Of a DNA stretch of 64,000 nt, positions 10,432 to 59,103 are shown in pieces. The DNA comes from Candidatus Nanosyncoccus sp. (GTDB lineage Bacteria > Patescibacteriota > Saccharimonadia > Saccharimonadales > Saccharimonadaceae), in the NCBI GenBank assembly GCA_045546095.1, contig JAZQCE010000010.1:5712-69711 (forward strand). Direction: 5' to 3'. Below the pieces are notes generated by a model. That model had not been told where the DNA came from. It did no database searches and was given only the letters and a program-made list of their open reading frames with translations. The translations under genes and the position numbers were made by a program. Position 1 is the stretch's first letter, and each line of letters begins with the position of its first letter.

Positions 10432-11526
10432 GTTGGGTTGCCCAATGTCGGCAAATCCACATTGTTTAATGCTCTCACAAACGCTGGCGCCCTCGCTGCC
10501 AACTATCCTTTTGCTACCATCGAGCCAAACGTCGGCATTGTCCCGGTACCAGATGAGCGGCTAGACATCCTCGCCAAAATGTACGAGACCGACAAAATCG
10601 TCCCAGCTACTGTCGAGTTCGTCGACATTGCTGGCCTCGTCGCAGGCGCCTCAAAAGGCGAGGGGCTCGGCAATAAATTCCTTGCCCACATCCGTGAATG
10701 CCAAGCTATCTGCCATGTGGTCCGCGCCTTCAAAAACGACGACATCCTCCGTGCCGACCAAAAACTCGTCGATGATATTGTAGCGCAAGCCAAGGACGAC
10801 ATAGACATCATTAACTTAGAGCTACAGCTCGCCGACGAAGAAACCAAAGCCAAAATCGCCGCCAAACGCAAAAAAGACCCTGGGGACGAATTCATCCCCT
10901 ACCTCACCGACAAGCCCGTCATCTATATGTTCAATGTAGACGAAAAAGGCCTCACCGACAATGACCTACAACAAAAACTAACAGAAGTCGCAAGAAATGC
11001 GCAGTCGAGGGACATAAAGGCAATACTTGCCGAAGGCAATTTTGCCGCCGAAGGGGCGAAGCGAGGTGATAAAATTTCTAATTTATCACCTCGCGAAGCT
11101 CCCGAGACGTGCATTTCTTGCGACTCAAACTGTATTTTTGTTGATGCCAAACTCGAAGAGGAGATGTCCGGCATGGACCGCAATGAGCGCAAAGAGTTCT
11201 TGGAGAGTTACGGGGTAAAAGAAGATGCACTCGGCGAATTAATCAAGGCCGCCTATGACGTCCTCGGTCTCCAATCCTTCCTCACCGCCGGCAAGAAAGA
11301 ATGCCGCGCCTGGACCATCAAAAAAGGCTCTACAGCACCCCAAGCCGCCGGTACTATCCATACCGATTTTGAACGCGGTTTCATCGCTGCAAATGTCTGT
11401 AAATACGCCGACTTAGCAAGACTCGGCTCCGAGAAAGCCGTCCGCGAGGCCGGCCTCCTCCGCACCGAGGGCAAGACTTACGTCATGCAAGACGGCGACG
11501 TTGTCGAATTCCGTTTCAACGTATAA
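10411..11526 (+). CDS. ychF: Redox-regulated ATPase YchF (with in-frame hairpin insertion)
   Basis: GIVGLPNVGKST, NYPFATIEPN, FVDIAGLV, TGS domain IHTDFERGFI, YVMQDGD. Confidence 0.97.
   Translation: MNLKIGIVGLPNVGKSTLFNALTNAGALAANYPFATIEPNVGIVPVPDERLDILAKMYETDKIVPATVEFVDIAGLVAGASKGEGLGNKFLAHIRECQAICHVVRAFKNDDILRADQKLVDDIVAQAKDDIDIINLELQLADEETKAKIAAKRKKDPGDEFIPYLTDKPVIYMFNVDEKGLTDNDLQQKLTEVARNAQSRDIKAILAEGNFAAEGAKRGDKISNLSPREAPETCISCDSNCIFVDAKLEEEMSGMDRNERKEFLESYGVKEDALGELIKAAYDVLGLQSFLTAGKKECRAWTIKKGSTAPQAAGTIHTDFERGFIAANVCKYADLARLGSEKAVREAGLLRTEGKTYVMQDGDVVEFRFNV
10986..11125. repeat. Hairpin element family C, copy in ychF
   Basis: Arms AGTCGCAAGAAATGC / GCATTTCTTGCGACT; core TCGAGGGACATAAAGGCAA...GCCGAAGGGGCGAAGC shared with 36082 and 40266. 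Confidence 0.85.
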
Positions 11527-17276: not shown

Positions 17277-17466
17277 ACGCTTGAAGAGTCTTTTTGTTAG
17301 CATAATGAGATTTAGACCAGATTTCTAAATTGTAAGTTTTGCAACTCGACAACGAAAAAATCTCCCCTAGCGAACTTTAGTTTGCGAATAAGGAGATTTT
17401 TTCTTGACTCGTGTTGCAAGTTTTACAATTTAGAAGTCCGAGCTAACAAAAAGACTCTTCAAGCGT
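17277..17466. repeat. 190-bp nested palindrome filling the radA-ruvC intergenic space
   Basis: Perfect 25-bp inverted repeat 17277-17301 / 17442-17466 enclosing an imperfect long stem 17320-17438. Confidence 0.9.
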
Positions 17467-30903: not shown

Positions 30904-32769
30904 TCAGTCCCTCTTTAACATAACCGTAAAAGCTTCTGACGGAATGTCGATTTTGCCAAATCGCTTCATTCGTGCTTTACCGCGTTTTTGCTTCGCAAGT
31001 AGCTTGGCCTTGCGATCTCTATCACCTGTGTGGATTTTTACCGTCACATCTTTGCGATACGCACCAATTGTCTCCCGCGCGATAATTCTCGCCCCAATCG
31101 CCGCTTGCAGAGCCACTTCAAAATTCTGACGGGGAATTACGCCTTTCAGCTTCTTCGTCACTTCCCGGCCAATCGCATCTGCCTCACTTCTGTGTGCCAT
31201 CACCGAAAGCGCGTCCATCCGCGTCCCAGCTATTATAAAGTCCACTCTCACTAGGTCTTCAGGCCGATAACCATCTAATTCATAATTAAACGAAGCGTAT
31301 CCACTTGTCGCAGATTTTAGCTGATCATAAAAATCAGTCAACAGATTTGCCATCGGCGCTTCAAAATCAATCACCGCTCGTTCTTCTATATAGCTAAGAT
31401 TCGTCTGATGTCCTCGTTTTTCATTGATTAGATTCAGTACATTACCAATCATCGGCTTCGGTACAATTATCTCTCCCTTTACCCACGGCTCGCGAATTTC
31501 TGCGATTTCCGACACATCCGGCAAATCCGCCGCAGATTTTATCTCACGGACTTCACCGTTCGCCATCACGATTTCATAATTTGTACTCGGATTAGTCACG
31601 ATTAAATCTAATCCAAATTCTCGTTCCAGCCGCTCCTTGATAATATCCATATGGAGTAGCCCCAAAAACCCGATTCTCAGACCAAACCCGAGGATCGGCG
31701 AATTTTCCGGCTCAAATTTTAGTGCTGAATCCGACAAGCTCAATTTTTCCACCGCCTCTTTTAAATCTTTGTATTGATCGTTTGATACAGGGAAAAACCC
31801 TGCATACACAAACGGCAATACATTCTTGTATCCGGGCAGTGGTGTGTCAGCTGGTTTTTTTACCAACGTCACCGTATCACCCACCTTCGCCTCGCTAGTT
31901 GTTTTTAGATTGGTCACAATATAGCCAATCTCTCCCGCAGATAGTCGCTCTCTTGGCGTCATCTTTGGTGTCAAAATCCCGACTTCCAATGCTAACCCCT
32001 TCGTCTCTGCTGCCATCATCCGAATCTCTGCCCCCTTAGGGATCTCTCCGTCAAACACCCTCACATATAGCACCACCCCCCGATAATCGTCAAAATATGA
32101 ATCAAAGATCAACGCTCTAGTGGTCACAGCAGGCCCAACACCATCTTTTCTCGGGCTGCGTTCTCGACCCCTGTCGCCACAGGGGTCGAGCCGCTCATCC
32201 TCGCCTTGCCAGGCTCCGGAGGCCCTTCGAAAAGAGGTGCTTGGGCCTGCCGCCACTACCGCATCTAATATTTGCTCCACATTTTTACCCGTCTTACCGG
32301 AGACTTCTATAATGTCAGATCGTTTGCACCCGAGCAGATTCATAATCTGCGCCGCTACTGATTCGGTATCTGCCGCCGGCAAATCAATTTTGTTTATCAC
32401 CGGAATAATTGTGAGGTCTTGTTCTAATGCCAGATACACATTCGCGAGCGTCTGCGCCTGAATCCCCTGCGTGGCATCCACCACCAGTACCGCCGACTCC
32501 ACCGCCTGCAATGACCGACTCACCTCATAGCTAAAATCCACGTGTCCTGGCGTATCGATTAAATTCAGAGTATACCCTTTCCACTGCATCGTTACCGGAG
32601 CCAGTTTAATCGTAATCCCTTTCTCACGTTCTAGCTCCATTGAATCTAGCAGCTGCGATTGCATCTCACGTTTGCTCACCGTCCCCGTGAGCTCCATCAT
32701 CCGGTCCGCAATCGTACTTTTCCCGTGATCAATGTGTGCAATGATACAAAAATTCCGAATCTTTTCCAT
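30904..32769 (-). CDS. lepA: Translation elongation factor 4 (with in-frame hairpin insertion)
   Basis: IRNFCIIAHIDHGKST, LIDTPGHVDF, GFLGLLHMDI, IPRQNFEVALQA. Confidence 0.97.
   Translation of the reverse strand: MEKIRNFCIIAHIDHGKSTIADRMMELTGTVSKREMQSQLLDSMELEREKGITIKLAPVTMQWKGYTLNLIDTPGHVDFSYEVSRSLQAVESAVLVVDATQGIQAQTLANVYLALEQDLTIIPVINKIDLPAADTESVAAQIMNLLGCKRSDIIEVSGKTGKNVEQILDAVVAAGPSTSFRRASGAWQGEDERLDPCGDRGRERSPRKDGVGPAVTTRALIFDSYFDDYRGVVLYVRVFDGEIPKGAEIRMMAAETKGLALEVGILTPKMTPRERLSAGEIGYIVTNLKTTSEAKVGDTVTLVKKPADTPLPGYKNVLPFVYAGFFPVSNDQYKDLKEAVEKLSLSDSALKFEPENSPILGFGLRIGFLGLLHMDIIKERLEREFGLDLIVTNPSTNYEIVMANGEVREIKSAADLPDVSEIAEIREPWVKGEIIVPKPMIGNVLNLINEKRGHQTNLSYIEERAVIDFEAPMANLLTDFYDQLKSATSGYASFNYELDGYRPEDLVRVDFIIAGTRMDALSVMAHRSEADAIGREVTKKLKGVIPRQNFEVALQAAIGARIIARETIGAYRKDVTVKIHTGDRDRKAKLLAKQKRGKARMKRFGKIDIPSEAFTVMLKRD
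32129..32250. repeat. Hairpin element family B, copy in lepA
   Basis: Arms GCAGGCCCAACACCATCTTTTC / GAAAAGAGGTGCTTGGGCCTGC; core aligns with 57364-57482. Confidence 0.85.
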
Positions 32770-36081: not shown

Positions 36082-36213
36082 AGTAATTGCTAAAACATAA
36101 CGTCGAGGGACATAAAGACAAAATCTCTGATTTTGTCGCCGAAGGGGCAAAGCTTTTGTGTAAATTTATTATCACATCGCGGAGCTCCCAAGACGTATGT
36201 TTTAGCAATTACT
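36082..36213. repeat. Hairpin element family C, copy upstream of pnp
   Basis: Arms AGTAATTGCTAAAACATA(A)CGTC / GACGTATGTTTTAGCAATTACT; family C core. Confidence 0.85.
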
Positions 36214-37005: not shown

Positions 37006-37129
37006 TCAGGAAGTAAATTTTGAGCAAGATACGAGGCAGCATTGAGCAACGCAAAGGAGACGTACTTAGCGTACGTCTCCTGCGTAGCGGAAATGCTAAC
37101 AAAGTAGCTTGCCAAAATTTACTTCCTGA
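37006..37129. repeat. Hairpin element family D, overlapping the rpsO stop codon
   Basis: Arms TCAGGAAGTAAATTTTG.GCAAG / CTTGCCAAAATTTACTTCCTGA; inner GGAGACGTAC/GTACGTCTCC stem. Confidence 0.85.
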
Positions 37130-40265: not shown

Positions 40266-40405
40266 AAGACTTGCGCAAAATCGTAAAATCGAGGAACATA
40301 AAGGCAAAATCTCAGATTTTGCCGCCGAAGGGGCGAAGCTTTTGTGTAAAATTTCTAATTTACACAAAAGCGAAGCTTCCGAGGTTTACGATTTGCGCAA
40401 GTCTT
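40266..40405. repeat. Hairpin element family C, between the pgi and tRNA-Leu promoters
   Basis: Arms AAGACTTGCGCAAA(A)TCGTAAA / TTTACGATTTGCGCAAGTCTT; family C core. Confidence 0.85.
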
Positions 40406-40659: not shown

Positions 40660-43092
40660 TTATTTCAGAGCCTTTATTACCGCATCGCGATCATTTTTTA
40701 TCAACCTGAGCCTCGCGGCGATTTCTTTTTCGCCAATTTCTATCGCTCGAGCCAGAGCTGGCTCATCTTTCATCGGCAAGAAGAAATCCTTCCACGCCTC
40801 AAATTCGCTCTCCGTCCTGATAATATTAGCAGTGTACCGCGGGTACGCATCCAACGACTTATCCCCCATGACTTTCCTCAAGGACTCCCAATTCTTTACC
40901 AGCCACCGCCATGTCATCTCTCGTGACTTTGAATTCCTAAACAACCTTACAAACAGATAAATCTGATCCTGCAACTTCACAATCTCTTTTTTATCGAGCA
41001 ACCCCACTGCCTTTTTTAATACTTTCTCATCCTTCGTTAGCGTCACCGCTATACGCAGGTCTGCCTTAATCTCTGGATCGGCAATCTGCTGATATGCCCG
41101 GATATACTCATCAAACACCGAGCCATCCAAATAAATTTTAGCGTCCAAAATATCGGCTCGTATTTCCGAATCCAAGCTCTCGTAATTTCTGTCGTACATC
41201 TCTGCCAGTTTTTGCAAATTTTCGGTGTCTTCCGCATAGAAATCCAGCCCAAGCAGTATCGCCCGAAGACGCAAGGTATTTTCATCATCACCATCTCGCG
41301 TCGTCAAGCCAATTTCCGAAAGTTTCGGCTGCACCAAGTTCCCCACAAACTCTTTCAGTTTCTTTTCTTCTTCCGACCCAGGCTCCACGAAAATCTTTAG
41401 TTGCCCAATAATTACCGCCACGATTTCCCACACCGACGCACTATCCTCATCCTTAAACTTCTCTACCAAAGGCAATAGCGATGCCGAATCAGCCAGCTTC
41501 GTCCGCGCCGTGAGAGACCTATCAATTAAAAGTCTCAGTTTTTCTTCCAGCCCCAGCTTATCAAAATTCCGAAGCCGCTCTTCAAATTCAGCCTCACTCA
41601 AATTCAATACATAGTGCCCACTCATATCCTCTGTCACTTCCGGCACCATCCATTCCGTCTCCGGCATTTCAGGCGAATCCAGCAAAAACCGCTTCTGTGT
41701 GTATTTCTCAAATTCATCATCACCCGTAATCACCGGATACCCCGGCTTGTCAATAAACCCGTGCATTAGCTCACCCACATCAAACTCCGCATACTCCGAC
41801 AAAGCATTCCACAGGTCATCACCGACCGTATTTTTATATTTATATTTTTCAAAATATTTTCGTAAGCCTTTACAAAATTCATCCCAGCCCATCAAGCGAA
41901 TTAGCATCAGCATCAAATGTGCTCCTTTAGAATACACAATCGCACCATCAAATAATGTCGCTATCTCCGCCGGGTCATGTACCTCCTGATGCACCGACTG
42001 CACATCTGTATAAGCATCCCGCACCAAGGCCGAGAAACAATCACCCGTGAAAAAACCTTCCCAAATCTTAAACTCAGGATATGCATAATCAGACGCAAAA
42101 TATTCCATCACGCTGGCAAACGACTCATTTAACCACAAGTCATCCCACCATTCCATTGTCACGAGATCCCCAAACCACTGATGCGACAACTCATGTGCTA
42201 CCGTAAGCGAAACCGATTTTTTCGTCTCTATTGTCGCACTTTTGCCCACCAACATCATTGATTCCCGATAGGTCACCAGCCCCCAGTTCTCCATCGCTCC
42301 TGCCTCAAAATCCGGCAACGCTATCTGGTCTAATTTCTCCAGAGGATAAGGCACTCCAAAATTATCGTCATAAAACTCTAGCGACTTTGCCGCAATCTCA
42401 TTAGCAAAATCCACCGAATCCACATCCTGCGCCAACGAACAATAAGTTGTAATCTTCGTCCCATGCGCATTAGTCACACTCTTGCCATGAAATTTCCCAA
42501 TCACCCATGCCAGCAGATAAGTGCTCATTCGTGGCGTCGGCTGAAAAGTTTTTGAAAAAGCGCCATCGAGGACCGTAAGCTCGGCCGAACGGCCTCGAGT
42601 GTGTCCGAGATGGTGCTTTTCAAAAACTTCAGGTGTGTTGGCGATAATCAAGTCGTCTTTGTCTGGCGTTGTGATCGATAGCTCAAACACCGCTTTGGCC
42701 GCGGGCTCGTCGATACACGGGAAAGCCTCGCAAGCATAATGGCTTTCAAATTGCGTCGCCACTATCGTCTCCGTATGCCCCTCGTATTCATAAGTAGAAA
42801 GATACGCCCCCTGCATATTTTCATTCAAAGTGCCATTATAATCTATGGTTATTTCTCTTTCCCCAAGTGGTACCTTGCGGATCTCCAAGACCCCCCCGTC
42901 TGTCACGAACTCAGATTCCTTACCATCGACCAACACCCCATCAATCTTTAGACCCACCGCATGGAATTTCACCGTCTCCACCATGGCCTCACCAGTCACA
43001 GTCACCATTCCGCCAATCGTCTTGGTCTCTTTATCAATAAACAAATCAAGCGTATATTTTTCCGGTTTAAAATAATCAAGTAATCTCTCCAT
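40660..43092 (-). CDS. pepN: M1 family aminopeptidase N (with in-frame hairpin insertion)
   Basis: ATQFE, AFPCIDEP, GAMENWG, HELSHQWFG..LWLNESF. Confidence 0.95.
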   Translation of the reverse strand: MERLLDYFKPEKYTLDLFIDKETKTIGGMVTVTGEAMVETVKFHAVGLKIDGVLVDGKESEFVTDGGVLEIRKVPLGEREITIDYNGTLNENMQGAYLSTYEYEGHTETIVATQFESHYACEAFPCIDEPAAKAVFELSITTPDKDDLIIANTPEVFEKHHLGHTRGRSAELTVLDGAFSKTFQPTPRMSTYLLAWVIGKFHGKSVTNAHGTKITTYCSLAQDVDSVDFANEIAAKSLEFYDDNFGVPYPLEKLDQIALPDFEAGAMENWGLVTYRESMMLVGKSATIETKKSVSLTVAHELSHQWFGDLVTMEWWDDLWLNESFASVMEYFASDYAYPEFKIWEGFFTGDCFSALVRDAYTDVQSVHQEVHDPAEIATLFDGAIVYSKGAHLMLMLIRLMGWDEFCKGLRKYFEKYKYKNTVGDDLWNALSEYAEFDVGELMHGFIDKPGYPVITGDDEFEKYTQKRFLLDSPEMPETEWMVPEVTEDMSGHYVLNLSEAEFEERLRNFDKLGLEEKLRLLIDRSLTARTKLADSASLLPLVEKFKDEDSASVWEIVAVIIGQLKIFVEPGSEEEKKLKEFVGNLVQPKLSEIGLTTRDGDDENTLRLRAILLGLDFYAEDTENLQKLAEMYDRNYESLDSEIRADILDAKIYLDGSVFDEYIRAYQQIADPEIKADLRIAVTLTKDEKVLKKAVGLLDKKEIVKLQDQIYLFVRLFRNSKSREMTWRWLVKNWESLRKVMGDKSLDAYPRYTANIIRTESEFEAWKDFFLPMKDEPALARAIEIGEKEIAARLRLIKNDRDAVIKALK
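42541..42632. repeat. Hairpin element family A, copy in pepN
   Basis: Core GGACCGTAAGCTCGGCCGAACGGCCTCGAGTGTGTCC (42570-42606) with copy-specific arms. Confidence 0.85.
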
Positions 43093-45603: not shown

Positions 45604-47958
45604 CTACGAACCCGCGACGCACCTAATACTGTTGCCGCCGTACTTACTGTCGCCACTGGTACCTGGAGAGACAACCGTGCTACTCAGATCCAGTTTGTAG
45701 CTATAGTTGTCATCATACGCAGTAGACGACCAATAGCCTCCGCTGCTGCCCCTAAGGTAGGCAGACGACCTAAAGAAGCGGCCGGAGTAGAGGAAGTTAT
45801 TCGGGAACTGGCGGAGTCTGTTACTCGTTACTGCGCCAGTAGGTGTAGAGGATGAATTCATGTCAGCGTTAGATCCATCCATAGAAGCGCTGAGGTTGGA
45901 GAAGCCTTTGCTAGCGATGCCGTTACCTGTGCTCCTACCATAAGGTAATCTCCAGCCCTTCGGGCAGATAGAAGTGTTTACTGTCTCTGAAGTCTTACTA
46001 TTAGAGTCTGTAGCGGTAGGGCCACTATAGTAGGTAGTATTTGCCATTGCAGCTGCCCAGGTATAATAGTTACCATAGCCATAGGTGTTATTGTCGCCTG
46101 TAGAGCTGGCTACAGTAGATTGGGTATTGAAGTTGTTGTAACGAGGCATCCGGAAGCCGGCATGGCTAGTTTGTGAGATATCTATTGTAGCTGTACCGCT
46201 CTGAGTACCAGCATAGTAAAGTGAGTTTGGCTCGGTAGGATTAGTAGCGGAGCTAGTACTACCCGTAAAGTTCGCCGTCTCTGGCTCGGCTAGACCTTTG
46301 AAATTACCATAAGTCGCATCTGTATGGTATCCTTGGGCGAGATTACCAGTAGAATTATCCGAGTTGGTGTATTCTAATCTTAAATTATCCGTCATCCAAC
46401 AGTTACCGTCTGTGAGTCTGGCTACGGTGTAGATATTAGTATCTCTCGTGTCTTGGAGAGCAATGAAGGAGTCTAGAGTGATGCTGGGATGGTTCTCCGT
46501 AGCGAAGGATACGCCACTGTTTGAGTTTGTGTCTGTCTTATAGGTAATCTTGGTAAGGTTATTAGTACACTCAGTCTCGCCAAAGGTCTGCATGGTGTAG
46601 GTGGTGGATTTAGGTAGCCATACGGCATAGAGCCTGAGGCCCCCGGTGCTATACTGGCCAGCCGTAATAGTAAGTCTTTCATTCGGGCCATAGACTTTGC
46701 CAGCGGCAGTGGCGTTCGCAAAGTTTGTGGTAAAGTTCGCATCGTCTGGGTCTAGCTGCATCGTGCTCCAGCCAAGAAAGCCGTAGTCTGTACGGTAGAA
46801 GTTGGGAGCGTGAAGATAACCAACAGCCGTGGCGGTAGAGTATACGCTCTGGTTGCTCATGGCAGCAATGTTGCCGCTGACTACGGGGCCAGTAGCGCCG
46901 TTGCTACTGTAGCAGATGTAATTACCTGGGCAGTCTGTCCATTGGGCGTAGAGGGTAATGGTGCTGCCTACGGCTGCGAGGTCGGTGACTTGTTGCTCAT
47001 TGGTATAGGAAGTGCCGGTGCCGTCTTGTTTGGTGTTCCAGCCGGCGAAATAGTAGCCAGATGGGGGAGTGAATCCGACAGAGTTGAGATTGGCAGAGAC
47101 CCCCTCATAAAAGACCTGGTCTTGCATAGTACCAGTGCCAGAAAGAGTAGTGCCATTAAAGATGCTGGCAGGATTAAAACTGACTCTATATGAAATACAA
47201 GCGTCAGCCATGGTAGTGTAATAGACGATAGTACCATCCTGATTGCTATTATTGATGTCTGGTATGAGCTTGTAAGTGCCTAGAGGCATAGAGCTATTCA
47301 TAGCTACGCCATAGTAGAGGGAGAATTCATCATTAATGTCTGTGGTACTAGGTGTAGGGAGAGGAGATTTAATAGTAGCGACAGTGCCTCCTAGAGCTGG
47401 GACTGGGGAGAAGGTAGAGCTAGCGATGGGAGCTGTATCATCTGCATTATAGTAATAGCCCCAGGTATTGGCAGAGCTATTTAGGGCAGTACTACCAGAT
47501 ACTGGGGAGAAGTAAGTGCCTACAGTATTATTGCTGCTGTTACCATTTAGGTAGAGATTGTTATCATCTACTGATGCGGATACAGCGAAATTATAGCCTG
47601 AGCGACATGTGGTAGAGACGATGATTTGGTCTTTACTGATAGCAGTGCTGATGCCAGTAGTAGGGTCGCTGCCGGCGGTAGAGATGTTGATGTTCTGGGC
47701 ACCAGAAGAGGTGACGGTGAGAGAATCAGCGGCTGACACTGGAGCGACTAGAAATGTGCTTATCGTAAGCACAAAAACAAGCCCGGTAAAAGCACCAGCA
47801 GCTTTACCTATAATAGGCATACACGAACTGACGTTCGAGAGGTCATGCTCTTTAATTGCCTGATGGCTGTCTCGGACCACTAGGCAGAGCCCACTGCTAG
47901 TGCTTTTACTAGGCTTATTTTTAACTAAACTTGCGAGATGATTAAATAAATAAAACAA
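45604..47958 (-). CDS. Secreted FISUMP-domain protein with Listeria/Bacteroides repeats and DGR-like C-terminus (paralog 3); start uncertain
   Basis: GYYFAGWNT..ITLYAQW repeat, DTRDTNIY..LTDGNCWM, YGNYYTWAAAMA, CPKGWRLP, YWSST..IRC. Confidence 0.85.
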   Translation of the reverse strand: MFYLFNHLASLVKNKPSKSTSSGLCLVVRDSHQAIKEHDLSNVSSCMPIIGKAAGAFTGLVFVLTISTFLVAPVSAADSLTVTSSGAQNINISTAGSDPTTGISTAISKDQIIVSTTCRSGYNFAVSASVDDNNLYLNGNSSNNTVGTYFSPVSGSTALNSSANTWGYYYNADDTAPIASSTFSPVPALGGTVATIKSPLPTPSTTDINDEFSLYYGVAMNSSMPLGTYKLIPDINNSNQDGTIVYYTTMADACISYRVSFNPASIFNGTTLSGTGTMQDQVFYEGVSANLNSVGFTPPSGYYFAGWNTKQDGTGTSYTNEQQVTDLAAVGSTITLYAQWTDCPGNYICYSSNGATGPVVSGNIAAMSNQSVYSTATAVGYLHAPNFYRTDYGFLGWSTMQLDPDDANFTTNFANATAAGKVYGPNERLTITAGQYSTGGLRLYAVWLPKSTTYTMQTFGETECTNNLTKITYKTDTNSNSGVSFATENHPSITLDSFIALQDTRDTNIYTVARLTDGNCWMTDNLRLEYTNSDNSTGNLAQGYHTDATYGNFKGLAEPETANFTGSTSSATNPTEPNSLYYAGTQSGTATIDISQTSHAGFRMPRYNNFNTQSTVASSTGDNNTYGYGNYYTWAAAMANTTYYSGPTATDSNSKTSETVNTSICPKGWRLPYGRSTGNGIASKGFSNLSASMDGSNADMNSSSTPTGAVTSNRLRQFPNNFLYSGRFFRSSAYLRGSSGGYWSSTAYDDNYSYKLDLSSTVVSPGTSGDSKYGGNSIRCVAGS

Positions 47959-48056: not shown

Positions 48057-50246
48057 TCACTCAAACACCGGCAAATCGTCCGGAAACGGGTCAAAATCCG
48101 ACTCCCCAAAATCATCAGCAAAATCCGTAAACCCATCGCCGTCACGATCACGATACCCCGCCGAGCCAGCCCCCATCCCGTACGGATCATACCCGAGCTC
48201 CATCAAAAACCTAGACGGCATATTATAATTCCTATCACCAAACGAAAACCGACTCGCCGCATAAGTCAAAAACAACTTCCGCATCGCCCGCGTCATCCCT
48301 ACATATGCTAGCCTCCGCTCTTCTTCTAGCTCCGCCGGATCATCTATGCACCTTGAACTCGGAAACAGCCCCTCTTCCATCCCTACAATAAACACTACTG
48401 GAAATTCCAACCCCTTTGCAGCATGCAGCGTCATTAAGGTCACAGAATTCGCCTCACTGCTCTCATCCACCGACGACATCAAAGTCGCATCCGCCAAAAA
48501 CTCCTCCAGCGTGTCATATTCAGCCGCATTCGTCGCTAGTACATCCAAGTTCCGCATCCGCTCTTCTGCCGCCGGTGTTCCATCATCCGTCAATGTCTTG
48601 AAGTCAAAATACTCTACAATTCGCCTTACGATTTCGCCCGAGTTTTCTACAGCTTTTAAATCAACCGGATCGGTCCTATTCGGGACCGTAAGCTTGGCCG
48701 AGCGGCCCTTGAGCGTGTCCCGAGTAGGACCATCCGGTTGATTTTGTATCCCCCTGATAAACCCAGTCAACTTCCTCAAAGCATTTTTCGCCTTAGCAGA
48801 ATTCAATACCTCCAGCAGATCCGCATCCAGCAGCGGGTTCTCACCCTTCATCACGTCCATTGCAGACAAAATCTTGTTTAGTGACACCTCACCAATCCCT
48901 GAAAGCACATTAGATACCACACGCGCCAGACTAACCGTATCTCGCTGATTTTGAATCACCTTTAATATCGCCAGCACGTCCTTCACTTCCTTGCGATCAT
49001 AGAATCTCACCCCGCCCACAATTTTATATGGTATATGCATCCCCATAAACGCTTTTTCAAAATTATACGACTGTGCATTCGTCCGATAAAGCACCGCAAA
49101 ATCACTAAAATCCGGATATTTCTTTTGCAAATTCAGGATTGTGAGCGCCACATAATTCGCTTCCTGCGCTTCATCACGCAGATTCTCAATATCCACCGGC
49201 TCACCATCCTCTATCTCCGTAAATAGAGTTTTTTCGGTCCGGGTTTTATTTTGATTAATGATTTTCTGCGAAGCCCGCAAAATATTCCCCGTAGAACGAT
49301 AGTTCTGCTCCAACTTGATTACCTTAGCCCCCGGAAAATCCTTTTCAAAATTCAAAATATTCGTAAAATCCGCTCCCCGCCATGAATAAATAGACTGCCA
49401 ATCGTCCCCCACCACACAAATATTTCGTTTTTCATTTACCAAAAGTTTTACAATATTATATTGCACGACATTAGTATCTTGATATTCATCAATCAGGATA
49501 TGTTTGAATCTTTTCTGCCATTTTTTTCTCACCTCAGAATGTTTTTGCAGCAGTTCTAATTCTTTCAAAAGCAAATCGTCAAAATCCAGCGCCCCTGCCT
49601 TTTCTTTTTCTACTTCATATTTCGCAAAAATTTTGGCAATTTTTTGTTGGTTTGGATAAATCGCTTTCGCCGCGTAGTCATCCGGCCCATTCCCCTGATT
49701 CTTTTCACTCGAGATAATCGACTGAATCGATTTTGGTTTCAAGTTTTTATTATCTGTAAACTTCAAATCTTTAATAATTCGCCGAATTAGCGATACCTGG
49801 TCGTCCATGTCATAAATCACAAAATTCCGATCCAGCCCTGCCGCATCCGCCTCAATTCGGAGTATCCGCACCGCAATACCGTGGAACGTCCCCATATAAG
49901 GCATGAAGCTACGGGGCGGCTCTTGGGGATTTGCGGGCAATTCCAAAAACGCTTCACTCGGGACCGTAAGCTCGGCCGAACGGCCTTGAGTGTGTCCCGA
50001 GTGAAGTGTTTTAGAATTGCCCACCAACCGCCACAGCCTCCCCCGCATCTCTCTCGCCGCCTTATTAGTAAACGTCACTGCGAGGATATCCGACGGCCGC
50101 ACACCATGAGCAATCAGATTAGCAATGCGGTGTGTTAAAGTTTTCGTTTTCCCAGATCCAGCTCCCGCCAATATCAACACTGGCCCCGTTAGGCACTCTA
50201 CCGCCTCCTTTTGCCGCGGATTCAATCCCTCCAAAATTTCATTCAT
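48057..50246 (-). CDS. pcrA: ATP-dependent DNA helicase PcrA/UvrD (two in-frame hairpin insertions)
   Basis: LAGAGSGKT, TFTNKAA, IDEYQD, QNYRST, TLHAAKGLEF, EERRLAYVGMTRA. Confidence 0.97.
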   Translation of the reverse strand: MNEILEGLNPRQKEAVECLTGPVLILAGAGSGKTKTLTHRIANLIAHGVRPSDILAVTFTNKAAREMRGRLWRLVGNSKTLHSGHTQGRSAELTVPSEAFLELPANPQEPPRSFMPYMGTFHGIAVRILRIEADAAGLDRNFVIYDMDDQVSLIRRIIKDLKFTDNKNLKPKSIQSIISSEKNQGNGPDDYAAKAIYPNQQKIAKIFAKYEVEKEKAGALDFDDLLLKELELLQKHSEVRKKWQKRFKHILIDEYQDTNVVQYNIVKLLVNEKRNICVVGDDWQSIYSWRGADFTNILNFEKDFPGAKVIKLEQNYRSTGNILRASQKIINQNKTRTEKTLFTEIEDGEPVDIENLRDEAQEANYVALTILNLQKKYPDFSDFAVLYRTNAQSYNFEKAFMGMHIPYKIVGGVRFYDRKEVKDVLAILKVIQNQRDTVSLARVVSNVLSGIGEVSLNKILSAMDVMKGENPLLDADLLEVLNSAKAKNALRKLTGFIRGIQNQPDGPTRDTLKGRSAKLTVPNRTDPVDLKAVENSGEIVRRIVEYFDFKTLTDDGTPAAEERMRNLDVLATNAAEYDTLEEFLADATLMSSVDESSEANSVTLMTLHAAKGLEFPVVFIVGMEEGLFPSSRCIDDPAELEEERRLAYVGMTRAMRKLFLTYAASRFSFGDRNYNMPSRFLMELGYDPYGMGAGSAGYRDRDGDGFTDFADDFGESDFDPFPDDLPVFE
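48657..48745. repeat. Hairpin element family A, pcrA copy 2
   Basis: Arms AAATCAACCGGAT(C)GGTCCTATTCGGGAC / GTCCCGAGTAGGACCATCCGGTTGATTT. Confidence 0.85.
49935..50022. repeat. Hairpin element family A, pcrA copy 1
   Basis: Arms GGGCAATTCCAAAAACGCTTCACTCGGGAC / GTCCCGAGTGAAGTGTTTTAGAATTGCCC. Confidence 0.85.
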
Positions 50247-50713: not shown

Positions 50714-52264
50714 CTAGATTCCGGTCAGCGGCACTATATCTGCACCCAGATGCCTCAGTCGTGCTGCAAAATCTTGATACCCACGATTAATTGGATAAAC
50801 ATTGCGCAAAATCGATTTCCCTGGTGCCGCAAGCATGCCAATCAGCACCACTACCGCTGGACGCAAAGCCTGCGGCGCGACCAATTCCGTCGGCCTCCAA
50901 TTTGTCGGCCCCTCAATATACACACGATGCGCGTCGAGCAACTCTACCTTGGCATTCAAATTCGCAAGCTCCGTAATATACACCGCCCGATTCTCGAACA
51001 CCCAGTCATGAATCAATGTCCTCCCCTTCGCCACAGCTGCAATTACCGAGAAAAACGGCAAATTATCAATATTTAGCCCCGGGAAAGGCATTGGATGAAT
51101 TTTGTCCACCGGCGCCACCAAATCAGACTTCTTTATTGCGAGGTCCACCAATCTGGTCCGCCCATTAGCCGAAGCATACTCTGGCGACTTTTCAAATTTT
51201 GCATTCATACTTTTTAGCACTTCCAGCTCGACTTCCAAAAACTCTATCGGCGCACGCCTCAAAGTAATCTCCGACTTCGTCACTAGTGCCGCAGCGATGA
51301 AGCTCATCGCCTCAATCGGATCCTCAGAAATATTATAATCCACATCAAGGTCGATTTGCGGACGCCCCCGCACCCTCAGAGTAGTCGTACCAACACCAGA
51401 AATTTTGACCCCCATCTTTTCCAAAAAGAAACAAACATCCTGCACCATATAGTTAGGAGAAGCCCCCACAATCACTGTTTCTCCTGGCGCAAGTGCAGCC
51501 GCCATCAACACATTTTCAGTAACCGTATCGCCACGCTCAGTCAAAACAATATAACGTCCATCACTCTTCTTTAGTGTCTTTTGATCTACAGACACCTCAT
51601 AAAATCCAGGATTTTTTTCTGCATCTACTTTTAGCCCAAACTGCTCCAAGGCCTTGAGATGTGGCTCCACTGTCCTAGTCCCTAGCGAGCATCCACCAGC
51701 ATAAGGTATCTGAAACTGACGATAGCGATGTAGTAGTGGCCCCAAAAACATAATGATTGATCGCGTACGGCGCGCCGCTTCGACATCCATCTCGTCTAAC
51801 TTCAATTCGCGTGGTGATATAATTTCCAGGTCGCGCCTGCGATTTGTCCAACGGCATTTGACTCCGATAGACTCCAAAACTTCTATAATCCTAAAAACCT
51901 CTTCTATTCGTGCGATGCGTCTAAGAGTAGTCTTCCCAGTGTTTAGTAAAGACGCACAAAGCAAAGCTACCGCTGCATTTTTCGATGTATTAATCGTGAT
52001 TTCACCAGAAAGTTCCTTCCCACCAATAATCCGGAAACTCTGCGAGGCAGAGTCATTAATAGAGAGAATTTGCTTACCCAAAGCCTCCGAGAGCTTCTTT
52101 ATCATCTCTAACGATACATTCTGCCCGCCCTTCTCGATGCGGTGTATCGCCGACTGGCTCGACCCCACTGCCTCGGCTAACTCACCCTGAGTCCAGCCTT
52201 TTTCGAGCCGCATATGCTCTACGGTTTCACCAATAACTTGCTGATATGTCTTTGCTTTTGCCAT
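50714..52264 (-). CDS. murA: UDP-N-acetylglucosamine 1-carboxyvinyltransferase with N-terminal XRE HTH
   Basis: WTQGELAEAVGSSQSAIHRIEKG HTH; SKNAAV, GGCSLGTRT, LRPAVVVL EPT motifs. Confidence 0.92.
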   Translation of the reverse strand: MAKAKTYQQVIGETVEHMRLEKGWTQGELAEAVGSSQSAIHRIEKGGQNVSLEMIKKLSEALGKQILSINDSASQSFRIIGGKELSGEITINTSKNAAVALLCASLLNTGKTTLRRIARIEEVFRIIEVLESIGVKCRWTNRRRDLEIISPRELKLDEMDVEAARRTRSIIMFLGPLLHRYRQFQIPYAGGCSLGTRTVEPHLKALEQFGLKVDAEKNPGFYEVSVDQKTLKKSDGRYIVLTERGDTVTENVLMAAALAPGETVIVGASPNYMVQDVCFFLEKMGVKISGVGTTTLRVRGRPQIDLDVDYNISEDPIEAMSFIAAALVTKSEITLRRAPIEFLEVELEVLKSMNAKFEKSPEYASANGRTRLVDLAIKKSDLVAPVDKIHPMPFPGLNIDNLPFFSVIAAVAKGRTLIHDWVFENRAVYITELANLNAKVELLDAHRVYIEGPTNWRPTELVAPQALRPAVVVLIGMLAAPGKSILRNVYPINRGYQDFAARLRHLGADIVPLTGI

Positions 52265-52296: not shown

Positions 52297-52453
52297 AACA
52301 CAAATAGCATGTTTTTCGGGACCGTAAGCTTGGCCCGACCGTCGAAGGAGACGAGACTGCAGAAAGTTCACTTTCTGCAGCGAGCCGACGCTCAACGGGC
52401 GACTCAAAGAGTCGAGCGGCCTTGAGCGTGTCCCGAAAAACATCCATTTGTGT
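52297..52453. repeat. Hairpin element family A, long form, between divergent murA and pgk
   Basis: Same termini as the short copies plus an internal segment of about 75 bp; arms AACACAAATAGCATGTTTTTCGGGAC / GTCCCGAAAAACATCCATTTGTGTT. Confidence 0.85.
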
Positions 52454-55549: not shown

Positions 55550-55624
55550 GGCCTCTTAGTATAACGGTTAGTACATCGGGTTTTCATCCCGACAACGCGG
55601 GTTCGACTCCCGCAGAGGTCACCA
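55550..55624 (+). tRNA. tRNA-Glu(TTC)
   Basis: Cloverleaf, anticodon loop TTTTCAT, CCA end. Confidence 0.93.
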
Positions 55625-55774
55625 TAATTTAAAAGAAGACCCAAAGGGTCTTATTTTAAATTATGACGGTCTTTGCGGGAGGCGAAACCGCAAAGCGGGT
55701 TCGCCCTTTCAAGGAAATGAGTGAAAAAGAAAAAATTATTTTTCTTTTTCCGAATGACGCAGAAAGGAAAGAAT

Positions 55775-55862
55775 TTTACGAAGTAAAATTCTTGCTCCCG
55801 CGTGAAACAAACTCCCGCATTTACGAAGTAAAATTCTTGCTCCCGCGTGAAGCAAACTCCCG

Positions 55863-55863
<1 letters not shown>
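55775..55863 (+). repeat. 45-bp-period tandem duplication abutting the ligA stop
   Basis: TTTACGAAGTAAAATTCTTGCTCCCGCGTGAA(A/G)CAAACTCCCGC at 55775-55818 and 55820-55863. Confidence 0.9.

Positions 55864-59083
<3,220 letters not shown>

Positions 59084-59103
<20 letters not shown>

Follow-up and report, generated by a model that had tools for sequence, protein, structure and literature searches.

A 64,000-nucleotide stretch of DNA from Candidatus Nanosyncoccus sp. (the window; positions 5712-69711 of contig C10 in the assembly G000, which comprises 832 kb in 27 contigs and is 98% complete) carries two in-frame copies of one hairpin-forming repeat within its pcrA gene. We consider it somewhat better than an even bet, with a probability of roughly 55%, that this repeat, here called family A, is a gene-less selfish palindromic element of the Rickettsia kind, whose spread or retention is coupled to replication. 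Its unit would be a conserved apical core of 35-39 nt placed on a basal stem of 10-30 bp, with a stem sequence specific to each locus. Strand E denotes the strand with the core as written on the plus strand of the window, GGGACCGTAAGCTYGGCCGAACGGCCTTGAGYGTGTCCC.

The host gene encodes a PcrA/UvrD-type superfamily 1 helicase (Table 1), identified by its Pfam matches to UvrD-helicase (5.9e-89) and UvrD_C (1.2e-75) and by a match to the PcrA structure 1pjr in the PDB (E = 4.7e-138). The translated protein includes the segments ...LHSGHTQGRSAELTVPSEAF... and ...PTRDTLKGRSAKLTVPNRTD..., each encoded by one of the two hairpins. An earlier, sequence-only reading of this DNA had described one element lying twice in frame in pcrA, with a shared core, unrelated arms and one additional base in the second copy. 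Our analysis agrees with this description, and the hairpin limits match the earlier coordinates within one base. The arms of about 25 bp are reverse-complementary within each copy and dissimilar between the copies. When folded as DNA, positions 49930-50027 around copy 1 yielded -33.3 kcal/mol (z = -8.4) and positions 48652-48750 around copy 2 yielded -33.8 kcal/mol (z = -9.1). The core of copy 2 contains one extra C (GGCCC instead of GGCC). Read in gene sense, copy 1 has GGA CAC ACT CAA GGC CGT TCG... (GHTQGRS) and copy 2 has GAC ACG CTC AAG GGC CGC TCG... (DTLKGRS). Because of the extra C, the frame changes midway through copy 2, so that its first half is read in a different frame and its second half in the same frame as copy 1 (readings: GHTQG followed by RSAELTVP in copy 1 versus DTLKG followed by RSAKLTVP in copy 2).

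Structure statistics were derived from 121 distinct copies, which come from two phyla. The core folds into a first stem P1 (GAC/GTC) followed by a 5x2 internal loop, a second stem P2 (GCTY/GAGY) with a TT bulge and a third stem P3 (GGSC/GSCC) that is closed by the loop GARC. P3 shows a full exchange of C-G for G-C, with 93 copies of one type versus 27 of the other. Two of the P2 pairs are mostly G.T on strand E (80/121 and 102/121), which corresponds to A.C mismatches on the opposite strand, and the arms likewise have 77 G.T pairs on strand E versus 34 A.C. Strand E folded better than its complement in 114 of the 121 copies. Both the G.T pairs and the better folding therefore indicate that it is the fold of strand E, as DNA or RNA, that is kept. 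Arm positions 4-15 are Watson-Crick paired in 80-95% of the copies despite their unique sequences, and farther than about 9 nt from the core, arms of different copies are no more identical than base composition predicts (0.26).

A profile search of the 832-kb genome with nhmmer detected about 27 copies of family A, each with individual arms, 3 to about 30 bp long, that are complementary to each other. Fifteen copies (55%) are located inside long open reading frames (ORFs) and 12 outside. According to Pfam, the hosts are two IleRS/ValRS-type synthetases, LeuRS, an AspRS-type synthetase, TyrRS, GatA and GatB, together with FemAB, an AddA-like helicase-nuclease, a RuvX-YceG fusion, a Wzy-like protein, an M1 aminopeptidase (PepN) and PcrA, which is hit twice; one further host is an ORF of 169 amino acids with no Pfam match. 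Of the six frames of the core, two contain stop codons (TGA and TAA). The 15 genic copies are open without exception; they use just the remaining four frames, and each of these is represented, giving the readings GHTQGRSAELTV, DRKLGRTALSVS, THSRPFGQAYG and DTLKAVRPSLRS. Thirty-nine more genic copies in related genomes obey the same rule of four open frames; their hosts, assigned by reading the sequences by eye with no family search, include ArgRS, TsaD, MnmA, TopA, PriA, LigA and GyrA. The proposal that insertions are filtered for an open frame thus holds for the genic copies here and in the relatives. The observed insertions keep the frame, fall in stop-free frames of the core and are presumably translated as loops. 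As four frames and both orientations are in use, the conserved entity is a nucleic acid and not a peptide.

With respect to function, the host genes are weighted towards tRNA- and DNA-handling enzymes, both in this genome (contigs C3, C5, C21, C22 and C25) and in the relatives. Synthetases and GatAB, which make up about 5% of the coding DNA by a rough estimate, hold 7 of the 15 genic copies.

The copies are strongly polar with respect to base composition. Strand E is the locally C-rich strand in 25 of the 27 copies of this genome (Fisher p = 1e-5), the majority polarity agrees in ten out of ten copy-bearing contigs, and the same orientation recurs in five further genus genomes (21 of 21 copies; p = 1e-6). 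In every large contig the GC skew at third codon positions (GC3) has an equal sign for plus- and minus-strand genes. Being independent of the gene strand, the skew therefore represents a replication-type asymmetry and not a coding-strand effect. Relative to E, the host genes run in the opposite direction in 11 cases and in the same direction in four (22 versus 17 in the relatives), and the 11:4 ratio is what is expected from three open frames versus one. The sequence-only reading had taken the common orientation of the copies as a hint at replication- or transcription-linked insertion. Tabulated genome-wide against both gene strand and skew-inferred replication direction, orientation is not random: the link to replication stands, with 46 of 48 copies following the skew, while transcription was rejected as the cause of the polarity, since gene direction predicts the orientation less well than the skew rule. 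The leading strand of bacteria is usually G-rich, and E would be the lagging strand if this also applies here.

Two further observations concern the strands and the assembly. Contig C3 (127 kb) has some three quarters of its genes on the GC3 C-rich strand, which under the usual rule would be the apparent lagging strand; such an arrangement is unusual for bacteria. A search of the assembly for a 16S primer motif gave no match; its contig C8 (1786 nt) is masked and consists entirely of N.

Frame use and polarity also bear on the idea of an element acting at the RNA level, i.e. an intervening sequence or processing site that is excised from the mRNA, or regulates it, and leaves a protein without the insert. 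A long stem would join the edges of the insert, the hairpins are very stable (z -5 to -9), and bacteria of the candidate phyla radiation are known for insertions in their rRNA genes. Nevertheless, we regard such an element as quite improbable: excision needs no constraint on frame or stops, yet all 15 genic copies and the 39 in relatives lie in stop-free frames; the better-folding strand E is antisense to the mRNA in 11 of the 15 genic copies; the polarity tracks the replication-type skew and not gene direction; and no ribozyme or intron family was matched. With Rfam 15, the window matched only tRNAs at the gathering threshold, and an E-value search of eight Bifidobacterium loci returned one tRNA and two weak microRNA-precursor matches far below the gathering scores, which we took as chance matches.

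Comparison with orthologues identified the two pcrA hairpins as insertions. Family A was present at neither PcrA site in any of the 17 other genus genomes aligned, many of which have short loops there. Among metagenomic PcrA proteins, the nearest of which is only 79% identical, the insert at site 1 is common to P0007, P0029, P0023 and P0032, whereas the one at site 2 also occurs in P0002, and P0003 carries the core inverted at the same place. As the insert of each site is common to a different small set of species, the two go back to separate, old insertions. This agrees with the independent events proposed from the sequence, with the addition that both are old and not recent. The P0003 core at site 2 is read as RDHKLGRAVLERVSD, in the orientation opposite to that in our genome, which suggests either that the core is able to invert between its arms or that a second insertion took place at the same site.

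To place the inserts on a PcrA structure, we used the alignment to 1pjr and an AlphaFold2 (AF2) model. Residues 79-116 replace residues 84-87 of the Geobacillus stearothermophilus PcrA, in the loop that follows the helix of motif Ia in domain 1A. Site 2 is located in a helical region that aligns poorly with the solved PcrA and that we take to be part of domain 2B. The AF2 model, calculated with a 24-sequence alignment, reached a moderate mean predicted local distance difference test score (pLDDT) of 64 and represents residues 78-106 and 504-532 as coil with a pLDDT below 50 between confidently predicted helices. Both inserts coincide with the two long low-confidence coil segments of the model and with gaps relative to the solved PcrA, and they have no counterpart in the 17 genus orthologues, at variance with ancient conserved loops. 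These data show that family A entered pcrA on two occasions, separated in time, and each time in a different variable surface loop.

The same holds beyond pcrA, as the insert is missing from most orthologues of PcrA, GatB, GatA, TyrRS and PepN. Both PcrA loops are hot spots that contain unrelated GC-rich in-frame hairpins in other species, and the GatB linker of seven species contains at least three different kinds of core. It is hardly credible in this light that the peptide GRSA(E/K)LTVP itself serves as a functional module of proteins or represents an ancient, conserved PcrA loop. The peptide does recur in PcrA (twice), PepN, GatA, GatB, TyrRS and AspRS, but elsewhere its DNA is translated in three further frames (the last three of the four readings above) and also lies between genes, the insert is missing from most orthologues, and it is predicted as low-confidence coil. 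The use of four reading frames led us to reject this idea.

Several sister species show how variable these sites are. PcrA site 1 of G004 (Ca. Nanosyncoccus alces; L016) and the GatB linker of sister species (L054-L075) carry different in-frame hairpins (for example ...RPVVTGE...VVTS...), and the fold energies of these sister-species hairpins reach -70 to -100 kcal/mol. An apparent deletion remnant (AHSRDGS) is found in G017.

Family A is present in 13 of 25 genus genomes and in none of 16 genomes of other families in the order. Among the matches listed, with one genome per species, are many Saccharibacteria and Nanosyncoccus metagenome-assembled genomes from animal guts and also many cultured Bifidobacterium (callitrichos, saguini, reuteri, biavatii, myosotis, goeldii, rousetti and others). 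Six Bifidobacterium genomes (G042-G047) contain 11-29 copies each with the same 35-nt core, three of 13 further Bifidobacterium genomes are carriers, and the complete Bifidobacterium genomes in the sample have 0-5 copies. Here the copies are intergenic and frequently come as two facing hairpins behind the 3' ends of convergent genes (L107-L175, L222-L226). Their arms are GC-rich, perfect, 25-30 bp long and locus-specific. Arms and flanks are partly alike between some copies, an indication that a hairpin can also be copied as a whole. Arm GC content tracks the host genome (39% versus 59% in Bifidobacterium) while the core is unchanged. The GC skew of Bifidobacterium over 20 kb is only about +/-0.03 and too small to read polarity. 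The closest Bifidobacterium genome without the two hairpins of such a pair has a plain bidirectional terminator in their place and is too diverged for reading the junction. The AT-rich arms of two matches in Bulleidia and 'Clostridiales' bins are like those of Saccharibacteria, and these matches may result from misbinning. Since Saccharibacteria are epibionts of Actinobacteria, the sharing with Bifidobacterium may reflect either DNA exchange or a common constraint.

We compared orthologous copies in LeuRS, GatB and GatA, in a set in which two genomes occur twice. Their cores are 92-93% identical, the arms 61-68% and the flanking coding DNA 61-78%. The changes in the arms are compensatory and are visible also at the protein level. 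These identities indicate that the arms drift at about the rate of the flanking coding DNA, which served as the only reference, and stay paired while doing so. Judged from these alignments, the core appears to be either constrained in place or homogenised between copies.

The conservation of the core in place favours the main rival, namely that the core hairpin is a host-functional, strand-polar nucleic-acid signal. It would be a cis-acting site, used as single-stranded DNA in replication, repair or segregation or as an RNA structure, and kept by purifying selection, with the genic copies being incidental or tolerated. We consider this a possible account that falls well short of probable. In its favour, the 92-93% identity of orthologous cores contrasts with 61-78% for the flanking essential coding DNA, and about 29 of 35 core positions are invariant among the 121 copies of two phyla, with variation restricted to wobble, compensatory and unpaired positions. 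The polarity of 46 out of 48 copies resembles that of other polar chromosomal motifs, no transposase was found, and the Bifidobacterium copies follow the 3' ends of convergent genes. Conversely, the presence of the repeat is patchy (13/25 genus genomes and 3/13 further Bifidobacterium, with 1 to 29 copies), sister species have different, unrelated families of hairpins in these protein loops, aminoacyl-tRNA synthetase loops are not where an essential signal would be expected to lie, and there is no match to an Rfam family. A functional site is thus favoured by the conservation in place and opposed by the patchy distribution.

For the preferred reading, a selfish palindromic element, we propose the following mechanism. 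The hairpin of strand E would form at the replication fork, in single-stranded DNA of the nascent lagging strand. Switching of strands between the two arms, by snap-back or quasipalindrome templating, would keep them complementary during drift, and template switching may in addition extend the stem and build one arm from the adjacent host sequence. The core would be retained either as the part that nucleates the hairpin or as a part recognised by some factor. Spread or retention would in this way be tied to replication, with the better-folding strand E being nearly always the C-rich strand. The polarity, the better-folding strand and the junction in tyrS would all follow from such a fork-hairpin model.

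In tyrS, cutting out the core together with the E 3' arm (57 nt = 39 + 18) restores the length of 421 amino acids found in the closest relatives, and in a deletion scan this removal gave the best alignment score. The gene-downstream arm (E 5' arm) of pepN, DGAFSKTFQ, resembles DAGFKTVSFE of an insert-free orthologue, and that of gatB, DEVHS, resembles DEKYV. PcrA site 1 of G004 has a different hairpin, and conserved host codons (WDLLQ) make up its outer arm. From these cases it would seem, at the level of sequence, that the host's native sequence serves as one arm and that an inverted copy of it forms the other. No donor for the arms was found elsewhere in the genome: when all 54 arms were searched against the genome by blastn-short, only chance matches of 12-17 nt were obtained. 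No direct target-site duplications were seen at the feet of the hairpins, with the insertion junctions placed approximately.

A number of results weigh against a selfish element coupled to replication. The in-place conserved core of old, vertically inherited copies fits a function or gene conversion better than a purely selfish model, and no two copies in this genome have common arms, so that no recent copy-and-paste event is visible. A six-frame search for a Y1 transposase or REP-associated tyrosine transposase (RAYT; PF01797) detected none in this genome or in 24 of the 25 other genus genomes, although the positive controls were matched; PF01797 matches occur in only one of the 26 genus genomes. 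No mobilising enzyme for family A was found, and no copy is present in plasmid, phage or viral contig collections. Equating the C-rich strand with the lagging strand relies on the general bacterial rule, and a check of the leading strand by marker genes (RpoB, EF-Tu, GyrA, DnaK and others) gave a mixed result. As to the origin of the arms, removal of the whole hairpin scored equal or better in pcrA, gatA and gatB, and in the sequence comparison an arm taken from the target is supported only for tyrS. This deletion test is low in power, with gap penalties dominating outside tyrS, because the sites are hypervariable.

We compared family A with known systems of small palindromes. Rickettsia palindromic elements (RPEs) are short, gene-less palindromes of several families in a reduced, host-dependent bacterium; they occur between genes and in frame within housekeeping genes, where they are read through as extra surface peptides. 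Family A is like them in being both intergenic and in frame in genes and in folding as a hairpin in all cases. It differs in that the RPE consensus extends over the whole length (about 100-150 bp), whereas family A shares only a tip of 35-39 nt on a locus-specific stem; the host phylum is another one, and by description family A is set apart from the RPEs. To our knowledge, neither strand polarity nor sharing across phyla has been reported for RPEs.

Repetitive extragenic palindromic (REP) sequences and bacterial interspersed mosaic elements (BIMEs) with their RAYTs (Y1 HUH transposases), and palindrome-associated elements derived from IS200/IS605, are imperfect palindromes of 35-40 nt, whose strands fold unequally and which are handled as single-stranded hairpins, and IS200/IS605 insertions are oriented relative to replication. 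Family A shares with IS200/IS605 an orientation tied to the direction of replication as inferred from GC skew. In contrast to these systems, it comes without a Y1_Tnp in this genome and in 24 of 25 other genus genomes, and its better-folding strand is the C-rich one and not the presumed lagging-strand template. Unlike REPs, which are extragenic, family A has more than half of its copies here inside genes and has copy-specific stems; in Bifidobacterium it is extragenic.

Integron attC sites are recombination sites that are defined by the fold of one DNA strand, vary in sequence with pairing kept and act in a strand-specific manner. Family A likewise keeps its fold, leaves the stem sequence free and is strand-specific. 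However, attC has conserved boxes at its base (R/L) and a variable centre, whereas family A has a conserved centre and a variable base, and it does not form a cassette array. Classical miniature inverted-repeat transposable elements combine conserved terminal inverted repeats, in place of the copy-specific inverted arms of family A, with direct target-site duplications. Template switching in quasipalindromes copies a change from one arm to the other, thereby keeping complementarity, and is strand-biased; as a mutational process, it explains neither the origin of the core nor how it reaches new sites. Family A thus fails a defining feature of each of RPE, REP/RAYT with IS200/IS605, and attC. 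Searches of the full-text literature for the core sequence, and by keyword for palindromic repeats of Saccharibacteria or Bifidobacterium, retrieved no description.

A bolder version of the replication-coupled scheme is no more than tentative and in our view rather unlikely. It supposes a transposase-less hairpin, in which the 39-nt (13-codon) core nucleates in the nascent lagging strand, snap-back builds the stem from the target, and the core circulates between Saccharibacteria epibionts and Bifidobacterium, so that it would mark the pairing of host and epibiont in the gut.

If the selfish reading is correct, in-frame selfish palindromes of the Rickettsia type also exist in the candidate phyla radiation, and they affect many essential information-processing enzymes (synthetases, GatA, GatB, PcrA, AddA), which would bear on annotation, structural modelling and estimates of protein reduction. 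The near-absolute polarity without a Y1 transposase would point to hairpin repeats being made or kept in a manner that depends on replication and not on a dedicated enzyme. A 35-nt core, near-invariant in two phyla and set on stems matching the composition of the host, would represent either a constrained recognition site or the trace of DNA flow between epibionts and their Actinobacterial hosts, and such a trace could predict the hosts of uncultured Saccharibacteria. Since the carriers include cultured Bifidobacterium type strains, these ideas are open to bench tests.

Table 1. Family A copies and their host ORFs in the window.
Feature	Position	Strand	Details
pcrA/uvrD-type superfamily 1 helicase ORF, 729 aa	48057..50246	-	two family A copies inside
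Family A hairpin copy 1 (pcrA)	49935..50022	+	core 49960-49998, 39 nt; in gene sense GNSKTLHSGHTQGRSAELTVPSEAFLELP, PcrA residues ~77-105
Family A hairpin copy 2 (pcrA)	48658..48745	+	core 48682-48721, 40 nt; in gene sense NQPDGPTRDTLKGRSAKLTVPNRTDPVDL, PcrA residues ~503-531
Family A hairpin in M1 aminopeptidase gene, in frame	42541..42633	+	core 42569-42607
M1 aminopeptidase (pepN) host ORF	40660..43092	-	insert translation ...EVFEKHHLGHTRGRSAELTVLDGAFSKTF...
Intergenic family A copy, core split	52309..52443	+	core parts within 52316-52436

In addition to the pcrA copies, the window contains two others (Table 1). A pattern of the core matched at 42569, 48682 and 49960, always on the plus strand, with none expected from 100 shuffles. 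The first of these belongs to the hairpin in the M1 aminopeptidase gene, which has a DNA fold with z = -5.6. The other copy is intergenic, and its core is interrupted by a nested insert of about 76 nt. It sits between the divergent genes for a helix-turn-helix-MurA protein and pgk, and its right arm extends into the TGTTATAAT box of pgk; the DNA fold amounts to -42 kcal/mol (z = -6.8).

Several intergenic copies, including this one and those at L118, L168, L174, L177 and L148, stop at an extended -10 box (TGTGTTATAAT). The box lies a few bases upstream of the start codon, and the distal arm mirrors a part of the promoter. The neighbouring ORF at 50714-52264 (minus strand) fuses an N-terminal, XRE-like helix-turn-helix segment to a MurA-like enolpyruvyl transferase, and its orthologue in G003 (L007) holds an in-frame family A copy.

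Other large hairpins in the window are those of one family at 36082-36213, 40266-40404 and 10986-11125 and further ones at 17277-17466, 32120-32259, 37006-37129, 58965-59085 and 47773-47922. They have copy-specific outer arms, often 100% complementary, which flank a conserved GC-rich interior. One such family starts with CGAGGGACATAAAG and ends with CTCCCGAG, similar to the collar of family A.

Finally, at 55597-55691 and 55775-55863, a 46-nt inverted repeat overlaps the 3' end of the tRNA at 55550-55621 and is followed by a 44-nt tandem duplication; the repeat and the duplication may represent an attachment site or the end of an element.

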